NCBI GenBank assembly: GCA_903937405.1
Contig: CAIZZE010000008.1
Span: 8,641 to 72,640, forward strand
From: an uncultured Alphaproteobacteria bacterium
Lineage (GTDB): Bacteria; Pseudomonadota; Alphaproteobacteria; Rickettsiales; UBA1997
DNA length: 64,000 nucleotides
Reading direction: 5' to 3'
Positions 8,786 to 51,616 of the stretch are shown here, piece by piece. A program made the translations under genes and the position numbers. The notes beneath the pieces are model-generated. The model worked only from the letters and a program-made list of their open reading frames with translations. It ran no database searches and had not been told where the DNA came from. Position 1 is the first letter of the stretch. Each line of letters starts with the position of its first letter.

Positions 8786-10117
8786 TTAGATTTTGGGCAG
8801 TTGTTCATTTTTATGTTTGTTAAAGATTGAGAAATCACTTGGTTTAAATTCTTTTTTGATGATTTTTTTGGTATAATTCAAGCAGCAGAAGAATAAAAAT
8901 AGTGATAAAATTGCTATCACCGAAAGCCATAAACCTTGCGGCCCAAGGTTTTTCATGATAGCGCCCGTGGCAAAAAGACCAACGATATTTCCAAGTAAAC
9001 TGATTCGTGAAAAAGCGCTATTAACGGCGAGTCGTTGCGTGGGTTTATATTTTTCATTTATCAAAACAATTGCCGGAAGTTTTACTCCAGCAAGTGCGCC
9101 AAACATCAGGAAAAGTAGGGGATAAATTTTATGCGGAAATTGGTTAATATGAAGCATATAAGCAAAAGCGAGGGCGAGAATGGCAGAGAAAATCATTAAA
9201 AACCGGCGACTCATAATATCAGCCAAATAGCCGATTGGAATGTAGAAAATCGTGCCGAAAAGTAAAACTGACAAAAGCAAAGAAGCTTCATCTTTAGGCA
9301 TACCAATTTTAATTCCGTAAATAATTAAAAAGGCGCTGGAAGAAGACATAGCGTAGCTCACGCAAAAAGCGGCGAGCATGATTTTTGGGGAATTTTTTAT
9401 ATAGCGCCAAATTGAAATATTTTTTTCTTCGCGAACTGCGGCATCAAGTTTTTTAAGGCGAGCGAGCGGAATCATTGAGGCGATGTAAAATCCGCTGGCA
9501 ATTACGTAAGTCGAAAAATTATCAAAAGATTGCAAAATATTTAAAAGCACCGGTCCCAAACTATTGCCAAATGCAACCAGCATTGTTCCCATTGAAATAA
9601 TCATCGCTCGCATGTGAGTTGGAGCCAGATCAATCATGATTGTATTGCGGGTTACGCCGCAAATGAAAAAAGAAGTTCCGATGCAAAAAATAATTAAAAG
9701 CCAGAGTAAATAACCCGGATAAACAAAAAGTGTCAGGGCGCAGATTGCCGAAATAATTGAGCCAAGATAAATGCTGTTAATCATGCCGGCTTTACGGCCC
9801 ATTGAGGGAAGAAAGCGCGAGAAAATTACACCAGCGCCAATTTGAGTGGCGGTTGAAAGTGAGATTAAAATTTCATTTTTAACATTGGCTTCAAGTTTAA
9901 GAGCGATCATTACCATCAATATTCCGTAGCCAATTGCTGACAGAAAAATTGAAGAAAAAATTGCTGCTAAATCTTTTACCAAGCTAATCGTCCAGCAAAA
10001 TTCTTTATTGCCAGAAATTGTTTCTGCTGATTTTGTCGGCGGTGGTGTGAAGCCGGAACCGCTGACATCATAGCTTCTAGTTATAGTTTCGTGGTTTGTT
10101 CGAGAATGAGTCAGCAT
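8786..10117 (-). CDS. MFS transporter
   Basis: 443 aa, about 12 hydrophobic segments. Loop motif GRKAGM after TM2 resembles the MFS D-R/K-x-G-R-K/R signature. Confidence 0.7.
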   Translation of the reverse strand: MLTHSRTNHETITRSYDVSGSGFTPPPTKSAETISGNKEFCWTISLVKDLAAIFSSIFLSAIGYGILMVMIALKLEANVKNEILISLSTATQIGAGVIFSRFLPSMGRKAGMINSIYLGSIISAICALTLFVYPGYLLWLLIIFCIGTSFFICGVTRNTIMIDLAPTHMRAMIISMGTMLVAFGNSLGPVLLNILQSFDNFSTYVIASGFYIASMIPLARLKKLDAAVREEKNISIWRYIKNSPKIMLAAFCVSYAMSSSSAFLIIYGIKIGMPKDEASLLLSVLLFGTIFYIPIGYLADIMSRRFLMIFSAILALAFAYMLHINQFPHKIYPLLFLMFGALAGVKLPAIVLINEKYKPTQRLAVNSAFSRISLLGNIVGLFATGAIMKNLGPQGLWLSVIAILSLFLFFCCLNYTKKIIKKEFKPSDFSIFNKHKNEQLPKI

Positions 10118-11548
10118 CTAAATCATTTTTCTAACATCGGTTAAATGTCCGGTTAGAGCTGCTGCCGCCGCCATTGCTGGGCTTAGAAGGTGAGTTCTGC
10201 CGCCGCGACCTTGTCTGCCTTCAAAATTTCGGTTGGAAGTCGAAGCGCATCTTTCGCCAAATTCCAATTTATCAGAATTCATTGCCAAACACATTGAGCA
10301 GCCCGGTTCGCGCCATTCAAAACCTGCTGCGGTGAAAATTTTATCAAGACCTTCTTTTTCAGCTTGCTCTTTAACTAAACCTGACCCCGGAACCACCATT
10401 GCAAGTTTGATATTTGCGGCGATTTTTTTGCCATCAACAATTTTTGCAGCTTCGCGGAAATCTTCAATTCTGCCATTAGTGCAAGAACCAATGAAAACTT
10501 TATCGATTATAACTTCTTCAAGTGGAGTTCCAGCGACGAGACCCATATATTCAAGTGATCTTTTAACAGCTTCTTGTTTGCCGACATCAGAAAAACTTTC
10601 TGGAGATGGAACTTTAGCGGTTATTGGCAAAGCATCTTCTGGGCTGGTTCCCCAAGTTACTTGTGGAGCAATTTCATCAGCATGTAAAATTAATTCTTTG
10701 TCATATTTAGCGCCTTTGTCAGAAGCCAAAGAATCCCAATATTTAACTGCTTTGTCAAAATCTTCATTTTTTGGTGCGAGAGGGCGGCCTTTTAAGTAAG
10801 CGTAAGTAGTTTCATCAGGCGCGATTAATCCAGCGCGAGCGCCAGCTTCAATTGCCATATTGCAAACTGTCATGCGCGCTTCCATTGAAAGCGATTTGAT
10901 TGCTTCTCCCGCATATTCAATAACGCATCCAGTTGCGCCGGCAGTTCCGATTTTTCCGATTACGGCAAGAGTAATATCTTTTGCGGTTACGCCTTTTCCA
11001 AGCTTGCCATCAACGCGAACTAAAAAGTTTTTTGCTGGAGATTGAATTAAAGTTTGAGTTGCTAAAACATGTTCAACTTCAGAAGTTCCAATGCCAAAAG
11101 CCAAAGCACCAAATGCGCCGTGGGTTGAAGTGTGACTATCGCCGCAAACTATTACCATTCCGGGTTGAGTCAAACCTTGCTCTGGTCCAACGATGTGAAC
11201 GATGCCTTGTTTTTTGTCATCTAAATCAAAATATTTAATGCCAAATTCTTTGCAATTTGCTTCCAGAGTTTCAACTTGAATGCGCGAAGTTGCATCTTTA
11301 ATTCCCGAAGTTCCGTGGCCGCGATCGGCAGTTGTGGTTGGAACATTGTGATCAGCAACTGCTAAATGTGCTTCTGGTCTTCTGGGTTTGCGGTGTTTCA
11401 TGCGCAAGCCTTCAAAAGCTTGAGGTGAAGTTACTTCATGGATTAATTGGCGATCAACGTAAATGGCGCTTGAAGAGCCATCGTCGTAAACTAAATGTGA
11501 ATCCCAGATTTTATCGTAAAGAGTTTTAGGCGCAGAAGAGTTAGTCAT
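10118..11548 (-). CDS. leuC: 3-isopropylmalate dehydratase large subunit
   Basis: 476 aa with [38 protein letters not shown] and NRNFEGRQG aconitase-family motifs. Confidence 0.95.
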
Positions 11549-19633: not shown

Positions 19634-19929
19634 GGAAAAATTACGACAGATAATGTAAGTTGTGCCAAGCGTTACAGCGTCATTATCCGAGAAATTTTTA
19701 CCAAAAAGACGAAGCTTAATTGGGAGTATAACACTCACTTTTTGACCGCAACTTGGTATTAAATGTTTTGGCAAAAAAACAAACGGCAGAAAAATTTTGT
19801 GAATTAATAAGCCAAAATATTGGCAAATTTGAAATTGCAAAACCTTGGCGTTACGTTATTGTTCCAACTAACCGAATTAAAATTACTGCCACAATCGATG
19901 TTTTGCTTGGCTTTTTGGATAAAAATTAA
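19634..19929 (+). pseudogene. remnant of the C-terminus of a restriction-type helicase/endonuclease subunit (frameshifted, no start)
   Basis: Start-less open frame 19732-19929 reads ...[38 protein letters not shown]...*. This resembles the (AK..AA..WC......W.Y.LV) tail I recall from type III Res / type I HsdR-like proteins. An upstream piece (19634-19762) lies in another frame. Recognition is from memory only. Confidence 0.3.
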
Positions 19930-19981
19930 TGAACTAGCAAAATTCGCGACCAATTCAAAAAAAACTAATCAAAAAAAACTT

Positions 19982-21139
19982 ATGAAACAAATCGAAATTA
20001 CTAAGCAACTTGTTAAAGACCATAATTTAACTGAAGGCGAATATGCCAAAGTTTTAGAAATTTTAGGGCGCGTGCCAACAATTACCGAACTTGGAATTTT
20101 TTCGGCAATGTGGTCGGAACATTGTTCTTATAAATCGACTAAAAAACATTTGAAAACCATGCATACAAGCGCGCCGTGGGTTATTTGCGGACCGGGTGAA
20201 AATGCTGGCGTAATTGATATTGGCGACGGACAAGCCGTAATTTTTAAAATGGAAAGCCACAATCACCCATCTTTCATCGAGCCTTATCAAGGTGCGGCGA
20301 CTGGTGTTGGTGGAATTTTACGCGACGTTTTCACAATGGGTGCGCGCCCAATTGCTAACTTAAACGCGCTGCGTTTTGGCGATATTAATCATCCAAAAAC
20401 CAAACAATTAGTTAACGGCGTTGTTTCTGGAATTGGTGGTTACGGCAATTGTGTTGGCGTTCCAACTGTTGGCGGCGAAGTTACTTTTGATAAAAGTTAT
20501 AATGGCAATATAATCGTAAATGCGATGACGGTTGGTTTAGCTGATTCGGATAAAATTTTCTATTCTGCTGCTTCTGAAATTGGTGCATCAGTGGTTTATG
20601 TTGGTTCAAAAACCGGTCGCGATGGCATTAATGGCGCGGTTATGGCGTCCGACGAATTTAAAGAAGGTGACGAAGATAAACGCCCAACTGTTCAAGTGGG
20701 AGATCCTTTTGCTGAAAAACTTTTACTCGAAGCCTGCATGGAATTGATGCAGTCAGATTGCATTCTTTCAATTCAAGATATGGGAGCAGCTGGTTTGACT
20801 TCTTCATCTTTTGAAATGTCGGGCAAAGGCGGCACTGGAATTGAGCTTAATTTAGAAAATGTGCCGCAACGCGAAACCGGCATGACACCTTATGAAATCA
20901 TGCTTTCTGAATCTCAGGAAAGAATGTTGATGATTATCAAACCGGAACGCGAAGATTTTGCGAAACAAATTTTCGAAAAATGGGGACTTGATTTTGCTGT
21001 AATCGGAATTGTAACTAATAGCGGACGTGTAGTTATTAAAATGAATGGTGAAGTTTACGCCGATATTCCATCAGAACCACTTTCTGAAAGCGCTCCGGAA
21101 TATGATCGCCCTTGGATTGATACTAGAACTAAAAATTAA
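19982..21139 (+). CDS. purL: phosphoribosylformylglycinamidine synthase subunit PurL, N-terminal half only (385 aa)
   Basis: [40 protein letters not shown] and DMGAAGL. Ends at ...[15 protein letters not shown] in the inter-half linker. Start at ATG 19982. Confidence 0.9.
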
Positions 21140-22553: not shown

Positions 22554-24071
22554 ATGGTTTTTAGCTCCAATATTTTTCTCTTCGCGTTTTTACCGCTAAC
22601 GCTGTTTTTCTATTTTTTATTGCCCAAAAAATTGGCGACAAAAAATGTTAGAAACGCCGTTTTACTGATTGCCAGCTTGCTTTTCTACGCTTGGGGCGAA
22701 ATGCATTATTTATGGCTTTTGCTACTTTCCATCACGGCGAATTATTTTTTCGGTATCGCAATTTATAACTCGAAAAAGCCCTCTTTGAAAAAGAGGGTGG
22801 ATGATCGCGTTAGCGATCAGACGGGTGATTTAAAATTAGCATTAAATCCTCCGGCACTGCGTGCCACCTCCTTTTTCAAAGGAGACTTTGTTGTGATCGG
22901 TTTTGCGATTACATTTAACCTAGCGCTGCTCGGTTATTTCAAATATTCCAACTTCTTAATTGAAAATTTAAACCAGCTTTTCTCGCTACAAATCACCAAT
23001 AAAAAAATCAGCCTGCCAATTGGAATTTCATTTTTCACCTTTCACGCTATTTCTTATTTAATCGATATTTATCGTAGAAAATGTCGCCCACAAAAAAATA
23101 TTTTTGATTTGGCGCTTTACATAGCTTTCTTTCCGCAGCTGATCGCTGGACCAATTGTGCGTTATAATTTTATCGAAAAATATTTGACCAAACGCAGTCA
23201 TAATTTCTTCGCTACAACTTATGGAATTCGCCGTTTTATAATTGGTTTGGGCAAAAAAGTTATCATCGCCAATCCACTTGGCGAATTTGCTGATGTGATT
23301 TTTTCTTCGCCTTTAACTGAAATAAATTCACCTTTAGCTTGGGCTGGTCTTGTTTGTTATACATTGCAAATCTATTTCGATTTTTCAGGCTATTCCGACA
23401 TGGCTGTTGGTCTAGCGCGAATGTTTGGTTTCAAATTTCCGGAAAATTTCAATTATCCTTATATTTCAAGATCAATAAAAGAATTTTGGAGAAGATGGCA
23501 CATGTCGCTTTCTGCTTGGTTTCGCGACTATGTTTATATTCCTTTAGGCGGAAATCGCGTTTCAATAACTCGTCAATATTTCAATTTAGTTTTAGTATTT
23601 TTTCTTTGCGGATTGTGGCACGGTGCAAGCTGGAATTTCATAATTTGGGGCATGTTTCACGGCGTATTTTTGGTATTTGAAAGATTAAAAGTTGGACAAA
23701 ATTTTTTAGATTTTATGCCAAAAATCATGCAGAATTTCTATGCGATTTTTGTGGTGATGATTGGCTGGGTTTTTTTCCGCAGTCCTGATTTAACTCATTC
23801 AATTGGCTTTTTAAAAACGATGTTTTTGGGAAATGAAATTGCCGCGATTTCCAATGATGTGGCAAGATTAATGAGATCGCATTTTATCTGGATGTCTTTT
23901 ATTTTGGCCTTGATTGGATTTTCACCTTTGATGAAAAAATTGGTGCAGAAATTTTCTAAAAACAGAATTTTTATGTTGAGTTTTGATGCGGCTTTAATTG
24001 CGATTTTAGTGTTATCTTTAACCAGACTTTCGGCAGCAACGCATAATCCGTTTATTTATTTTCAGTTTTAA
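22554..24071 (+). CDS. MBOAT family O-acyltransferase (AlgI/PatA-like)
   Basis: MVFSSNIFLFAFLP N-terminus, LGYFKYSNF, FFPQLIAGPI, FWRRWHMSLS and the catalytic-His region WHG. Contains an in-frame palindromic insert (see 22779-22884). Confidence 0.9.
   Translation: MVFSSNIFLFAFLPLTLFFYFLLPKKLATKNVRNAVLLIASLLFYAWGEMHYLWLLLLSITANYFFGIAIYNSKKPSLKKRVDDRVSDQTGDLKLALNPPALRATSFFKGDFVVIGFAITFNLALLGYFKYSNFLIENLNQLFSLQITNKKISLPIGISFFTFHAISYLIDIYRRKCRPQKNIFDLALYIAFFPQLIAGPIVRYNFIEKYLTKRSHNFFATTYGIRRFIIGLGKKVIIANPLGEFADVIFSSPLTEINSPLAWAGLVCYTLQIYFDFSGYSDMAVGLARMFGFKFPENFNYPYISRSIKEFWRRWHMSLSAWFRDYVYIPLGGNRVSITRQYFNLVLVFFLCGLWHGASWNFIIWGMFHGVFLVFERLKVGQNFLDFMPKIMQNFYAIFVVMIGWVFFRSPDLTHSIGFLKTMFLGNEIAAISNDVARLMRSHFIWMSFILALIGFSPLMKKLVQKFSKNRIFMLSFDAALIAILVLSLTRLSAATHNPFIYFQF
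22779..22884. repeat. palindromic element family HP5, inserted in frame in the MBOAT gene
   Basis: Arms CCCTCTTTGAAAAAGAGGGTGG and CCACCTCCTTTTTCAAAGGAG are inverted copies, and each is a hairpin. Inner hairpins are GATCGCGTTAGCGATC and GGCACTGCGTGCC. Translated as PSLKKRVDDRVSDQTGDLKLALNPPALRATSFFKG. Confidence 0.75.
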
Positions 24072-24077
24072 TTTTGA

Positions 24078-25169
24078 ATGAAACAAAACAAACTCTTAAT
24101 CACAGCTTTTGCCATAATTCTCGCGCTTCCAGCGTTGGATAGTATTTTTCATTTTTCGCCGGTTAAAGACTTGTTCGAAAAGCGTCAGCCAATTGCAAAA
24201 CCTGATTTTCCACAAAATTTTACCGAGTTAAAAACTTTTCCTAAAAATTTTGAAAAATATTTTAACGATAATTATGGATTTCGCAAAAGTCTGGTTTCGT
24301 TAAACAGTCACATGATGGACAAAGTTTTTGATGAATCTCCAGATGCGCGCGCTGTTGTTGGTAAAGATGGTTGGTTTTATTTTGATAATCATAATTCACT
24401 TCTCGATGCTCGTGGAATGGCGACAATCAGTGATGAAATGATTGAACGCGGCGTAAAATCATTTGGAGAAAACTGGAAAAAAATGCGTGAAAAAAATATC
24501 AATTATTTGCTGATAATTGCCGCCGATAAAAGTACAATTTATCCCGAGTTTTTGCCTGATTATATTAAGCCAAATGAGCCGCACAGAATTGATAAATTTT
24601 TAAATGCGCTAAAAGCAAAATATCCTGATTTTCCCGTAGTTGATTTGCGTCCGACTTTAAAAAAAGCTAAAGAAAACGAAGTAATCTACCACAAAACTGA
24701 TACGCATTGGAACAAGCGTGGCGCTCATTACGGCTATGTTGAAATTGCTAAAGCACTAAAAATAAAACCGCATTTGCGGGAAGATTTTTTAGAAAGAGAA
24801 GATGAATTTATTCGCGGTGATATTTCTGATATTATGGGCGTTGAAACTACAAATCGTAATTATGAATTAACTCCGAAATTCACCCAAACTTACCATCGCG
24901 TTATGCCAACTGCGGCAGAAATTAAGTTTTTTCACAAATTAAATTTCTTCGAAAATTCTAATAAAAATTTGCCGGTTATTTTTGGTTATCAGGATTCTTA
25001 TTTCGGCGATCTATTTGGCTATATGTCAGAACATTTTTCCAAAAGTTTTTATGATAATGAATTTCCTTGTGATCTAAACTATGAAATCCTAAAAAACTAT
25101 CATCCAAACGTTGTGATTCAAGAGTTCTGGGAAGGTAGGGTGGAAGTGGTTTTGAGTCAGTGTAAATAA
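24078..25169 (+). CDS. AlgJ/AlgX-like SGNH-fold O-acetyltransferase partner of the MBOAT protein
   Basis: N-terminal signal/anchor, GKDGWFYF, and YHKTDTHWNKRGA (DTHW catalytic block of AlgJ/AlgX). Confidence 0.75.
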   Translation: MKQNKLLITAFAIILALPALDSIFHFSPVKDLFEKRQPIAKPDFPQNFTELKTFPKNFEKYFNDNYGFRKSLVSLNSHMMDKVFDESPDARAVVGKDGWFYFDNHNSLLDARGMATISDEMIERGVKSFGENWKKMREKNINYLLIIAADKSTIYPEFLPDYIKPNEPHRIDKFLNALKAKYPDFPVVDLRPTLKKAKENEVIYHKTDTHWNKRGAHYGYVEIAKALKIKPHLREDFLEREDEFIRGDISDIMGVETTNRNYELTPKFTQTYHRVMPTAAEIKFFHKLNFFENSNKNLPVIFGYQDSYFGDLFGYMSEHFSKSFYDNEFPCDLNYEILKNYHPNVVIQEFWEGRVEVVLSQCK

Positions 25170-25247: not shown

Positions 25248-26255
25248 ATGTCTAAAGTTCTAGAAAACCTAAAAACACTTCTTCAAGTTCCTGATCTGGC
25301 ATCTAAAAAATGGATCTATGAACAATATGATTCACAAGTAATGAATGACACTCTTTACACCCGCGGCGATGCAGCAATTGTAAGGGTTCATAACACAAAT
25401 AAAGCTTTAGCAATTTCAACTGATTGCACCCCGCGTTATGTCGAAGCTGATCCTTTTGAAGGTGCTAAACAAGCGGTTGCAGAAACTTATCGCAATATTT
25501 CAGCAGTTGGTGGAAAACCTCTCGCAATCACAAATTGTTTGAATTTTGGAAATCCGCAAAAACCAGAAATTATGGGCCAAATTGTTTTGGCAATTCAGGG
25601 AATTACCGAAGCTTGCAAAGCTTTGGATTATCCGGTGGTTTCGGGAAATGTGTCGCTTTACAACGAAACTGATGGCAAAGCAATTCAGCCAACTCCAGCA
25701 ATTGGTGGCGTTGGTTTGTTGAAAGATTTAAATAAAAGATGTGACGCTAAATTTAAAATGGCAGGTGATGCAATTTTTGTAATCGGTAAAAACGAAGGTC
25801 ATTTGGGATGTTCGCTTTATGAACGTGAAATTTTGAAAATTGCGCCGCAAAAAAATCCACCTAAAGTTGATTTAGCTGAAGAAAAAAAGAACTCAGAATT
25901 TATCCGTGAATTGATTGAAAGTTCATCAATAAACGCTTGCCACGATGTTTCGGATGGTGGTCTGTTGGTTGCTTTATTTGAAATGTGTAGTGAAAAATTA
26001 GGCTGCGATCTTGATATTTCAGAATTTGTTGGTGAAGAAAATCAAATTTTATTTTCAGAAGATCAATCACGCTATGTTGTGGCTCTTGATTGTGCAATGG
26101 TTACAGAATTTAAGAAAAAAGCTGAGAAAAAAGGAGTTTCACTTGTTAAAATCGGCGAAACTTCCAAAGAAAAAATTCGTATTTCTGGAGTTGAGGTTGA
26201 AGTTAAAGAATTAACTAAACTTAACGAAATGGTTTTTGAGAAAGCGTTTTTTTAA
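25248..26255 (+). CDS. purL: phosphoribosylformylglycinamidine synthase subunit PurL, C-terminal half only (335 aa)
   Basis: Starts MSKVLENLKTLLQVPDLASKKWIYEQYDSQV. Contains AVAETYRNISAVGGKPLAITNCLNFGNP, VSGNVSLYNET and HDVSDGGL. Confidence 0.9.
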   Translation: MSKVLENLKTLLQVPDLASKKWIYEQYDSQVMNDTLYTRGDAAIVRVHNTNKALAISTDCTPRYVEADPFEGAKQAVAETYRNISAVGGKPLAITNCLNFGNPQKPEIMGQIVLAIQGITEACKALDYPVVSGNVSLYNETDGKAIQPTPAIGGVGLLKDLNKRCDAKFKMAGDAIFVIGKNEGHLGCSLYEREILKIAPQKNPPKVDLAEEKKNSEFIRELIESSSINACHDVSDGGLLVALFEMCSEKLGCDLDISEFVGEENQILFSEDQSRYVVALDCAMVTEFKKKAEKKGVSLVKIGETSKEKIRISGVEVEVKELTKLNEMVFEKAFF

Positions 26256-33269: not shown

Positions 33270-33364
33270 ATAGATCCTGAAACAAGTTCAGGATGACGTA
33301 GTTGGTGTTAAGTTCGAGTGCAAATTCTCCCACATCGTCATCCTGAACTTGATTCAGGATCTAT
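33270..33364. repeat. HP1 palindromic element (full)
   Basis: ATAGATCCTGAAACAAGTTCAGGATGAC ... GTCATCCTGAACTTGATTCAGGATCTAT, between galU and fabD. Confidence 0.9.
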
Positions 33365-39387: not shown

Positions 39388-39468
39388 ATAGATCCTGAAA
39401 CAAGTTCAGGATGACAGATTGGGCAGATCTTTCCCCCATCGTCATCCTGAACTTGTTTCAGGATCTAT
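39388..39468. repeat. HP1 palindromic element (full, short core)
   Basis: ATAGATCCTGAAACAAGTTCAGGATGAC ... GTCATCCTGAACTTGTTTCAGGATCTAT with a 25-nt core. Confidence 0.9.
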
Positions 39469-51533: not shown

Positions 51534-51616
51534 ATAGATCCTGAAACGAGTTCAGGATGACGACTTTGGCGAGATTTTTTTGATATTTCGTCATCCTGAA
51601 CTCGTTTCAGGATCTA
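51534..51616. repeat. HP1 palindromic element (full)
   Basis: ATAGATCCTGAAACGAGTTCAGGATGAC ... GTCATCCTGAACTCGTTTCAGGATCTA, between slt and purF. The arm mutations are compensatory (G/C pair). Confidence 0.9.

Follow-up and report, generated by a model that had tools for sequence, protein, structure and literature searches.

The palindromic repeats that come closest to the element described here are the repetitive extragenic palindromic sequences (REPs) tagged by CGTC and the Rickettsia palindromic elements (RPEs). CGTC-tagged REPs are formed by an unpaired CGTC tag (with the variants TGTC and CCTC), a stem of 8–9 bp whose first two pairs are A/T, a loop of 4–5 nt and a CCA tail; they occur mostly in Alphaproteobacteria, usually as inverted homo- or heterodimers with the tags facing each other, some copies are intragenic and in frame, and the family has no dedicated transposase (Di Nocera, De Gregorio and Rocco 2013, PMC3733652). 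The same study counts RPE-4 and RPE-6 of Rickettsia conorii among the CGTC repeats, and describes CGTC dimers enclosed by an outer palindrome in Halothiobacillus neapolitanus (PMC3733652). RPEs, as far as the work of Ogata et al. (2000, 2002) is relayed in PMC10969869 and PMC3733652, are palindromic repeats of 100–150 bp that lie in frame in many unrelated housekeeping genes and add a peptide segment to the product. The stretch analysed here (64,000 nucleotides of contig CAIZZE010000008.1 from an uncultured alphaproteobacterium; hereafter the window, to which all unprefixed positions refer) carries an element of this sort at 22779-22884, a palindrome with four hairpins that is read in frame inside the gene for an MBOAT (AlgI/DltB-like) O-acyltransferase. 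Most probably it represents a non-autonomous palindromic repeat, of REP/RPE type, which entered a permissive loop of the MBOAT protein, and which was tolerated because it is free of stop codons and comprises a whole number of codons. It belongs to a new family within the known REP/RPE-like translatable palindromic repeats, whose closest described relatives are the CGTC REPs.

That the segment is an insertion follows from comparison with orthologues. The MBOAT gene (22554-24071, plus strand) encodes 505 aa, matches Pfam PF03062 (E = 1.7e-30) and, in part, the NCBIfam DltB model, and keeps its reading frame intact over all 505 codons. Its close homologues belong to uncultured bacteria labelled Rickettsiales, Alphaproteobacteria, Pelagibacterales or Pseudomonadota bacterium, and none of them is a Rickettsia genome. 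The loop between the NYFFG and FNLxLLGYFKY motifs, measured in the 120 best homologues, has 15–23 aa in 77 of them as against 53 aa in the window protein. The window protein falls in a 90%-identity cluster of 34 members, and the insert is absent from all 13 other members listed, 11 of which are full-length proteins of 469 aa. The insertion relative to orthologues that had been proposed from the sequence is therefore supported by alignment; repeat-free orthologues carrying a homologous segment of equal length, the finding that would have spoken against it, were looked for among these homologues, and their loop is shorter. In net terms, the protein gains 36 residues, which lie between two transmembrane helices. 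At the DNA level, the insert-free allele on contig L124 is near-identical to the window outside 22757-22913 (plus strand), and the pairwise alignment breaks down inside this block, which comprises the element together with about 22 nt of diverged coding sequence on its left and about 25 nt on its right. The flanking codons accordingly read IAIYNSKK and DFVVIGFAIT in the window versus ILIHKKS and RNFFITIAII in insert-free alleles, and owing to this divergence the boundaries of the element are good only to a few bases. Homologous element DNA is found at the same place in the long-loop MBOAT orthologues L001, L002 and L003, with perfect inverted ends (CCCTCTTTGAAAAAGAGGGTGG and CCACCCTCTTTTTCAAAGAGGG) in the L002 copy.

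The element itself is highly structured. Read from the sequence, its left arm, CCCTCTTTGAAAAAGAGGGTGG, spans 22779-22800 and its right arm, CCACCTCCTTTTTCAAAGGAG, spans 22864-22884; the palindrome reaches 3–4 nt beyond this core on each side through outer flanks conserved in other copies (AAG before CCCTC and CTT after GAGGG), giving a full element at about 22776-22888. The predicted RNA fold of 22770-22895 has an energy of -47.9 kcal/mol versus -29.2 +/- 3.6 in 200 shuffled sequences, none of which folded as well (z = -5.1). The left border is an outer hairpin of the X type, HP-A (CCCTCTTT-GAA-AAAGAGGG; 22779-22797, plus strand), complementary at 8 of 8 positions and corresponding to positions 1–19 of the family hidden Markov model (HMM). 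It is followed by the left inner unit (22798-22823), which on the minus strand reads CGTC + TGATCGC + TAAC + GCGATCA + T + CCA and, by a scan for tagged hairpins and by covariation, could be recognized as a CGTC-tagged REP-like hairpin in the published definition (PMC3733652). On the plus strand its hairpin is TGATCGC-GTTA-GCGATCA (22802-22819), the tag (22820-22823) directly adjoins the TGATCGC stem, and the TCCA tail appears as TGGA (22798-22801). A box, GACGGGTGATTT, and then a short A/T loop come after this hairpin. The central part (22823-22852) is an imperfect inverted repeat formed by the X box GGGTGATTT, the loop TTAA-AATTAGCA-TTAA and the Y box AAATCCTCC, boxes that are conserved in the family alignment. 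The right inner unit (22848-22866, plus strand) has the variant tag CCTC(C) and a CCA tail overlapping its stem, and lies within the match to the Y-type HMM (22884-22844); its hairpin, GGCAC-TGC-GTGCC, occupies 22853-22865 between AAATCCTCC and CCACCTCCTTTTTCAAAGGAG. The right border is an outer hairpin of the Y type, HP-A' (CCTCCTTT-TTC-AAAGGAG(a); 22867-22885, plus strand), found by the Y HMM and mutated at its final base relative to the Y consensus. The window copy is a heterodimer, with an X half (CCCTC and GGGTGATTT) on the left, matching the family HMM at E = 1.8e-12, and a Y half (CCTCC and GGAGGATTT) on the right, matching the second HMM at E = 1.8e-11. The arm and hairpin coordinates agree with the original prediction of a roughly 105-bp element with hairpin arms and two inner hairpins, and so does the translation, PSLKKRVDDRVSDQTGDLKLALNPPALRATSFFKG, with the predicted preservation of the frame: that of the gene is the sole stop-free frame among the six. 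In the right flank, TGATCGGTTTTGCGAT (22894-22909), which encodes part of the next helix (VIGFAI), resembles the left inner hairpin TGATCGCGTTAGCGAT at 13 of 16 positions and may be a relic of an older unit; a third, degenerate unit at this site was considered on the strength of that similarity, but the family HMMs detect none.

The peptide search of a protein database with the insert returned no candidate, and the family was therefore traced at the DNA level. A scan of GTDB genomes (one genome per species) for the 19-nt outer hairpin of the left arm gave at least 119 loci. The full alphaproteobacterial architecture is present in four of the GTDB loci listed, in metagenome-assembled genomes labelled Proteobacteria, Rickettsiales and Rickettsia typhi, the last label probably being wrong. 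A metagenome scan with the pattern AAGAGGGTGG-N15-25-GACGGGTGATT gave at least 120 loci, and several of these contigs hold four or more copies within 100–140 kb. No trace of the element itself turned up when the literature was searched by sequence strings, and an Rfam scan of 22600-23050 at E values up to 10 gave only a chance vimentin match. The basic building block is a half-unit of about 50–53 nt with the consensus CCCTCTTTGAAAAAGAGGGTGGATCAATCGCTAGCGATTGAGACGGGTGATTT, composed of the outer hairpin (CCCTCTTTGAAAAAGAGGG), a TGG/CCA tail, the inner hairpin and a box; in subtype Y, CCTCC and GGAGGATTT replace the CCCTC and GGGTGATTT of subtype X. A whole element consists of two inverted half-units with their tag ends facing, and elements align clearly with one another.

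With the two HMMs, at least 354 non-overlapping half-units were counted in 221 clusters on other contigs. The clusters listed include 130 singletons, arrays of up to seven units and 71 inverted doublets, of which 30 have the outer hairpins pointing outward, as in the window, and 41 inward, around a spacer of about 15 nt. Two of the arrays (L177, 5900-6400; L193, 8296-8831, about 8400-8900) alternate X and Y units in inverted order with characteristic linkers, in the manner of bacterial interspersed mosaic elements (BIMEs). Of the 30 outward doublets, 18 are X–Y heterodimers, so that the heterodimer in the window is a regular form and no accident. The family is thus interspersed in intergenic DNA, as doublets and arrays, and as in-frame gene inserts, in related uncultured alphaproteobacteria.

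Comparison with the CGTC REPs reveals both likenesses and differences. In the window, the left unit has the CGTC tag, a 4-nt loop (TAAC) and the TCCA tail of that class, whereas its stem is 7 bp long, with G-C as the second pair; the right unit is alike only in part, with a degenerate tag CCTC(C), a 5-bp stem and a 3-nt loop (TGC). Across 96 units of the family, stem length has its mode at 8 bp (range 6–10), the loop has 3 nt in 34 units, 4 nt in 45 and 5–7 nt in 17, and 87 units end in a TCCA or CCA tail. The inner stems of these 96 units fall into 48 distinct sequences, and among 30 family members seven pairs of the inner hairpin show 11–20 compensatory double changes each. The first stem pair is usually T-A and the second often C-G or G-C, and the frequent 3-nt loop is a further departure from the published class. 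Like CGTC REPs, the family is interspersed, multi-copy in related contigs (one copy in the window) and rich in inverted doublets; unlike them, each tagged hairpin is here permanently linked to the outer 19-nt hairpin and the GGGTGATTT box in a four-hairpin element of 105–125 nt. The CGTC tag was part of the metagenome search pattern by which most family members were found, and therefore only copies found by other routes can test it; the tag (as GACG) is present in six of seven such copies (the window, L002, L003, L032, L045 and L054), and the seventh, L094, has the variant GTCG.

A second, classical CGTC REP family is also present in the window, with seven units of the form CGTC-ATCCTGAA-CTYGT-TTCAGGAT-CTA, all of them intergenic. 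They lie at 492-516, 6358-6486, 33274-33360, 39440-39464 and 51538-51613, as two clear dimers with inward tags, a degenerate dimer (6358-6486) and two singles. In total the window contains eight tagged hairpins versus 0.25 expected from shuffled sequences, which identifies the genome as a CGTC-REP host.

The parallel with RPEs drawn in the original prediction, that of in-frame palindromic insertion, is apt, since copies of the family lie in frame in several unrelated genes, housekeeping genes among them (for MBOAT, TrmD, leucyl-tRNA synthetase, an AFG1-like ATPase, radical-SAM, Pyr_redox_2 and adhesin-like proteins); the difference is that the host is an uncultured alphaproteobacterium and not a Rickettsia. 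The accompanying statement that the element has a sequence different from that of RPEs has to be qualified in one respect. NCBIfam and Pfam models, in a library that we take to include RPE-domain models, gave no match to the encoded peptides and host proteins beyond MBOAT/DltB, a comparison made at the protein level. The left inner hairpin, on the other hand, fits the CGTC-tagged class to which RPE-4 and RPE-6 are assigned in PMC3733652, so that the resemblance to RPEs may go beyond analogy to homology and reflect real relatedness.

Long open reading frames (ORFs) span 10 of the 30 outward doublets and several single units among the loci listed. By translation and Pfam, the hosts are TrmD (L149 and L196, at the same site), leucyl-tRNA synthetase, between its catalytic and editing domains (L179), an AFG1-like ATPase (L160), a radical-SAM protein (L183), a Pyr_redox_2 oxidoreductase of 1077 aa with two insertions (L032) and a further MBOAT protein (L241); a very large adhesin-like ORF (L131) was named by eye only. 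An orthologous empty site for the oxidoreductase copy is available in L158. The peptides derive from different frames of the same DNA (PSLKKRVDD..SDQTGD, ALFEKEGG..ETGDL and SFEKGG), and the X and Y copies in MBOAT orthologues are likewise translated in different frames. Orientation matters: not one of the 41 inward doublets is located inside an ORF, versus 10 of the 30 outward ones (loci listed; Fisher p = 6.5e-5), and the bias is retained when loci retrieved through MBOAT are left out (p = 0.006). Stop codons were considered as its cause and rejected, the numbers of open frames being similar in both doublet types.

Other classes of repeats share some of these traits. As with the BIMEs and REPINs of gamma-proteobacteria, the two subtypes alternate in inverted order with characteristic linkers and form doublets and tandem arrays; however, the window family has neither the GTAG tag nor a flanking RAYT gene, and BIMEs are extragenic. 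Miniature inverted-repeat transposable elements such as Correia/NEMIS, ERIC and Nezha are also short and non-coding, with terminal inverted repeats, a strong fold and occasional in-frame fusions to host genes, but for the window family neither a direct target-site duplication nor, between the unit pairs searched, a parent insertion sequence sharing its ends came to light.

In the protein, the insert is modelled as a floppy loop of about 35 residues. AlphaFold2, run with an alignment of 29 sequences, gave a mean pLDDT of 74, and residues 77-108, between helices 51-72 and 110-143, fell below 50; the topology check suggested with the original prediction therefore places the insert in a low-confidence loop between two helices. 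The loop would be cytoplasmic by the positive-inside rule, since K and R abound both in the native loop (HKKSRN) and in the one that precedes it by two helices (PKKLATKN). Unrelated palindromic inserts occupy the same loop in the MBOAT orthologues P0003, P0017 and P0072, with peptides such as ..RHCEHSEAI..CHASLAMT.. and ..CHPELSEGS.., which means that more than one repeat family has entered this site. The loop has either been struck repeatedly or is one of few sites where insertions survive. A second MBOAT loop, after the FHGxFLVxER helix, bears insertions of 15–45 residues in several orthologues and none in the window (alignment A1, columns ~480-540, after window residue ~380; P0012, P0017, P0041, P0054, P0063, P0065, P0070 and P0073).

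The proposed course of events is that a repeat of the REP/RPE kind inserts into the permissive MBOAT loop, with a trans-acting enzyme probably recognizing its hairpins as structures of single-stranded DNA, and that genic insertions would survive only where they are in frame, stop-free and placed in a loop. The conservation of structure with free stem sequence suggests that the hairpin rather than its sequence is recognized, as is the case for REP-associated HUH transposases; these HUH/Y1 enzymes would be the model for the enzyme, though published CGTC REPs have no dedicated one. When all ORFs of all loci were compared with the RayT protein of E. coli by phmmer, one weak match was obtained, in L170. 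This RAYT-like ORF (L170, 9579-10076, minus strand) scores 21.6 bits against Pfam Y1_Tnp (cut-off 23), with an X doublet (9236-9335) some 250 nt away, and it is flanked on both sides by another REP family (GGTCGGG..CCCGACC and GGTCGGC..GCCGACC; region 9340-10330), not by X/Y units. Inward doublets are flanked by TT/AAATC...GATTT/AA, and TTAA was considered as a target duplication; since TTAA is itself palindromic and complementarity continues further out (AGTT...AACT), it is read as part of the inverted ends.

Several observations weigh against a transposed repeat of this class. The flanks of the copies have no target-site duplication, only the inverted AAG...CTT extension, and none of the loci examined, whose flanks are short, has a transposase between its units or next to them; no parent insertion sequence was found between unit pairs 300–3500 nt apart, a small search space. 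Further copies, intergenic and intragenic, had been anticipated, and both kinds exist in related contigs, but exact, mismatch, relaxed blastn and HMM searches found none in the available 64 kb of the source genome, so that its multi-copy state would rest on the related contigs. The right unit of the window copy fits the CGTC REPs loosely in tag and stem, and the copies that testify to the tag independently of the search pattern number seven. Finally, the 22–25 nt of altered sequence beside the element are not what a straightforward insertion into the empty allele of today would leave behind: the alternatives are divergence of the loop once the element had entered, and import of the entire block through recombination.

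Import would mean that homologous recombination exchanged the native loop for some 160 nt of a more distant MBOAT allele that already bore an element, with no transposition into the gene in this lineage. It is a possibility to be taken seriously, although on the whole an unlikely one. The loss of identity across 22757-22913, both coding flanks included, in a gene otherwise near-identical to an insert-free allele would be expected from such an exchange; the 13 other listed members of the cluster share one version of the flanks and the window has another, and X/Y elements are present in this loop in many orthologues that are more distant. No donor allele with the flanks IAIYNSKK and DFVVIGFAIT was found among the 120 homologues, however, and the codons of the loop are poorly constrained and could have diverged after an insertion. 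Import would in any case alter only the last step of the history and not the nature of the element.

It is improbable that the insert has been co-opted, i.e. that the 35-residue loop or the strong mRNA structure (for example, by a translation pause during membrane insertion) serves the MBOAT protein or its operon. Identical copies of the 505-aa protein are encoded by 46 contigs, which come from several independent samples and show ordinary single-nucleotide polymorphisms (SNPs) around the gene; so widespread and stable an allele, the presence of elements in the same loop and of insertions in the second loop of many orthologues, and the strength of the RNA fold could all be taken as signs of a function. 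Against this, the closest relatives function without the insert, the peptides of orthologues come from different frames and element families so that no common sequence is kept, and AlphaFold2 yields no confident fold for it. A population variant carries two synonymous SNPs inside the element, and both weaken stems, which fits neutral decay after insertion. Repeats can also mislead metagenome assemblers, but that the gene is a chimera into which a repeat was wrongly joined has virtually no probability: recovery of the same protein in independent assemblies from several samples and sources, amid ordinary SNP variation, excludes an assembly artefact, and the frame is intact throughout. Insertion of a REP/RPE-type repeat into a permissive loop is therefore preferred, and the element is regarded as selfish or neutral DNA whose translation is incidental, with no sign of a host function.

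The outer module of the element has a wider distribution. Among the GTDB loci listed, a GGGGAGATT-type box comes no more than 16 nt after 85 of the 132 outer-hairpin matches, and 30 of them have an inverted partner, forming elements of about 90 nt (e.g. L035, 3852-3940, and L078, 1359-1455, among L005-L123). The genomes concerned are labelled Methylococcales, Nitrospirota, Desulfobacterota, Acinetobacter, Pasteurellaceae, Lysobacter, Dehalococcoidia and others. A literature search by sequence strings for this module gave only one mention: the same 46-bp motif is referred to in passing at the borders of capsule loci of Actinobacillus pleuropneumoniae (PMC6008488). Judging by its sequence, the alphaproteobacterial element looks like an outer-module backbone with a tagged REP in each arm. 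It is conceivable, if rather doubtful, that the outer module (hairpin CCCTCTTTGAAAAAGAGGG with a GGGGAGATTT-type box and its inverse about 90 nt away) is a mobile palindromic element that crosses phyla, Xanthomonadales included, and that it was fused with CGTC-type REPs in one alphaproteobacterial lineage into a four-hairpin chimera which colonizes coding sequences.

As to the neighbourhood of the host gene, the MBOAT gene is followed by an AlgX-like SGNH gene (24078-25169), and the purL gene (FGAM synthase II) appears to be split, with an N-terminal ORF at 19820-21139 (linker, AIRS and AIRS_C) and a C-terminal ORF at 25248-26255 (AIRS and AIRS_C). Its halves are separated by three genes, for an SDF transporter, the MBOAT protein and the AlgX-like protein. 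The same split-purL gene order is present in contigs L245-L247, and the C-terminal half follows AlgX in L003 and L004.

In kind, then, the element is nothing unusual: it is a selfish palindromic repeat that a protein loop tolerates, and what is new is its family and its set of hosts. Until now, palindromic repeats that are read in frame within essential genes have been regarded as peculiar to Rickettsia and a few other genomes, and the same behaviour is now seen in uncultured freshwater alphaproteobacteria that are probably free-living or associated with protists. The family offers material for the study of repeat spread, with presence and absence alleles at 90% protein identity or more, an MBOAT loop struck repeatedly in different frames and by different families, and a modular build. 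As a practical matter, protein lengths in metagenome gene catalogues are inflated by inserts of this sort, which also give rise there to spurious loops of low complexity. If the cross-phylum origin of the outer module were true, the element in the window would be the first link between the protein-coding palindromes of the Rickettsia type and a repeat superfamily that spreads horizontally across phyla.

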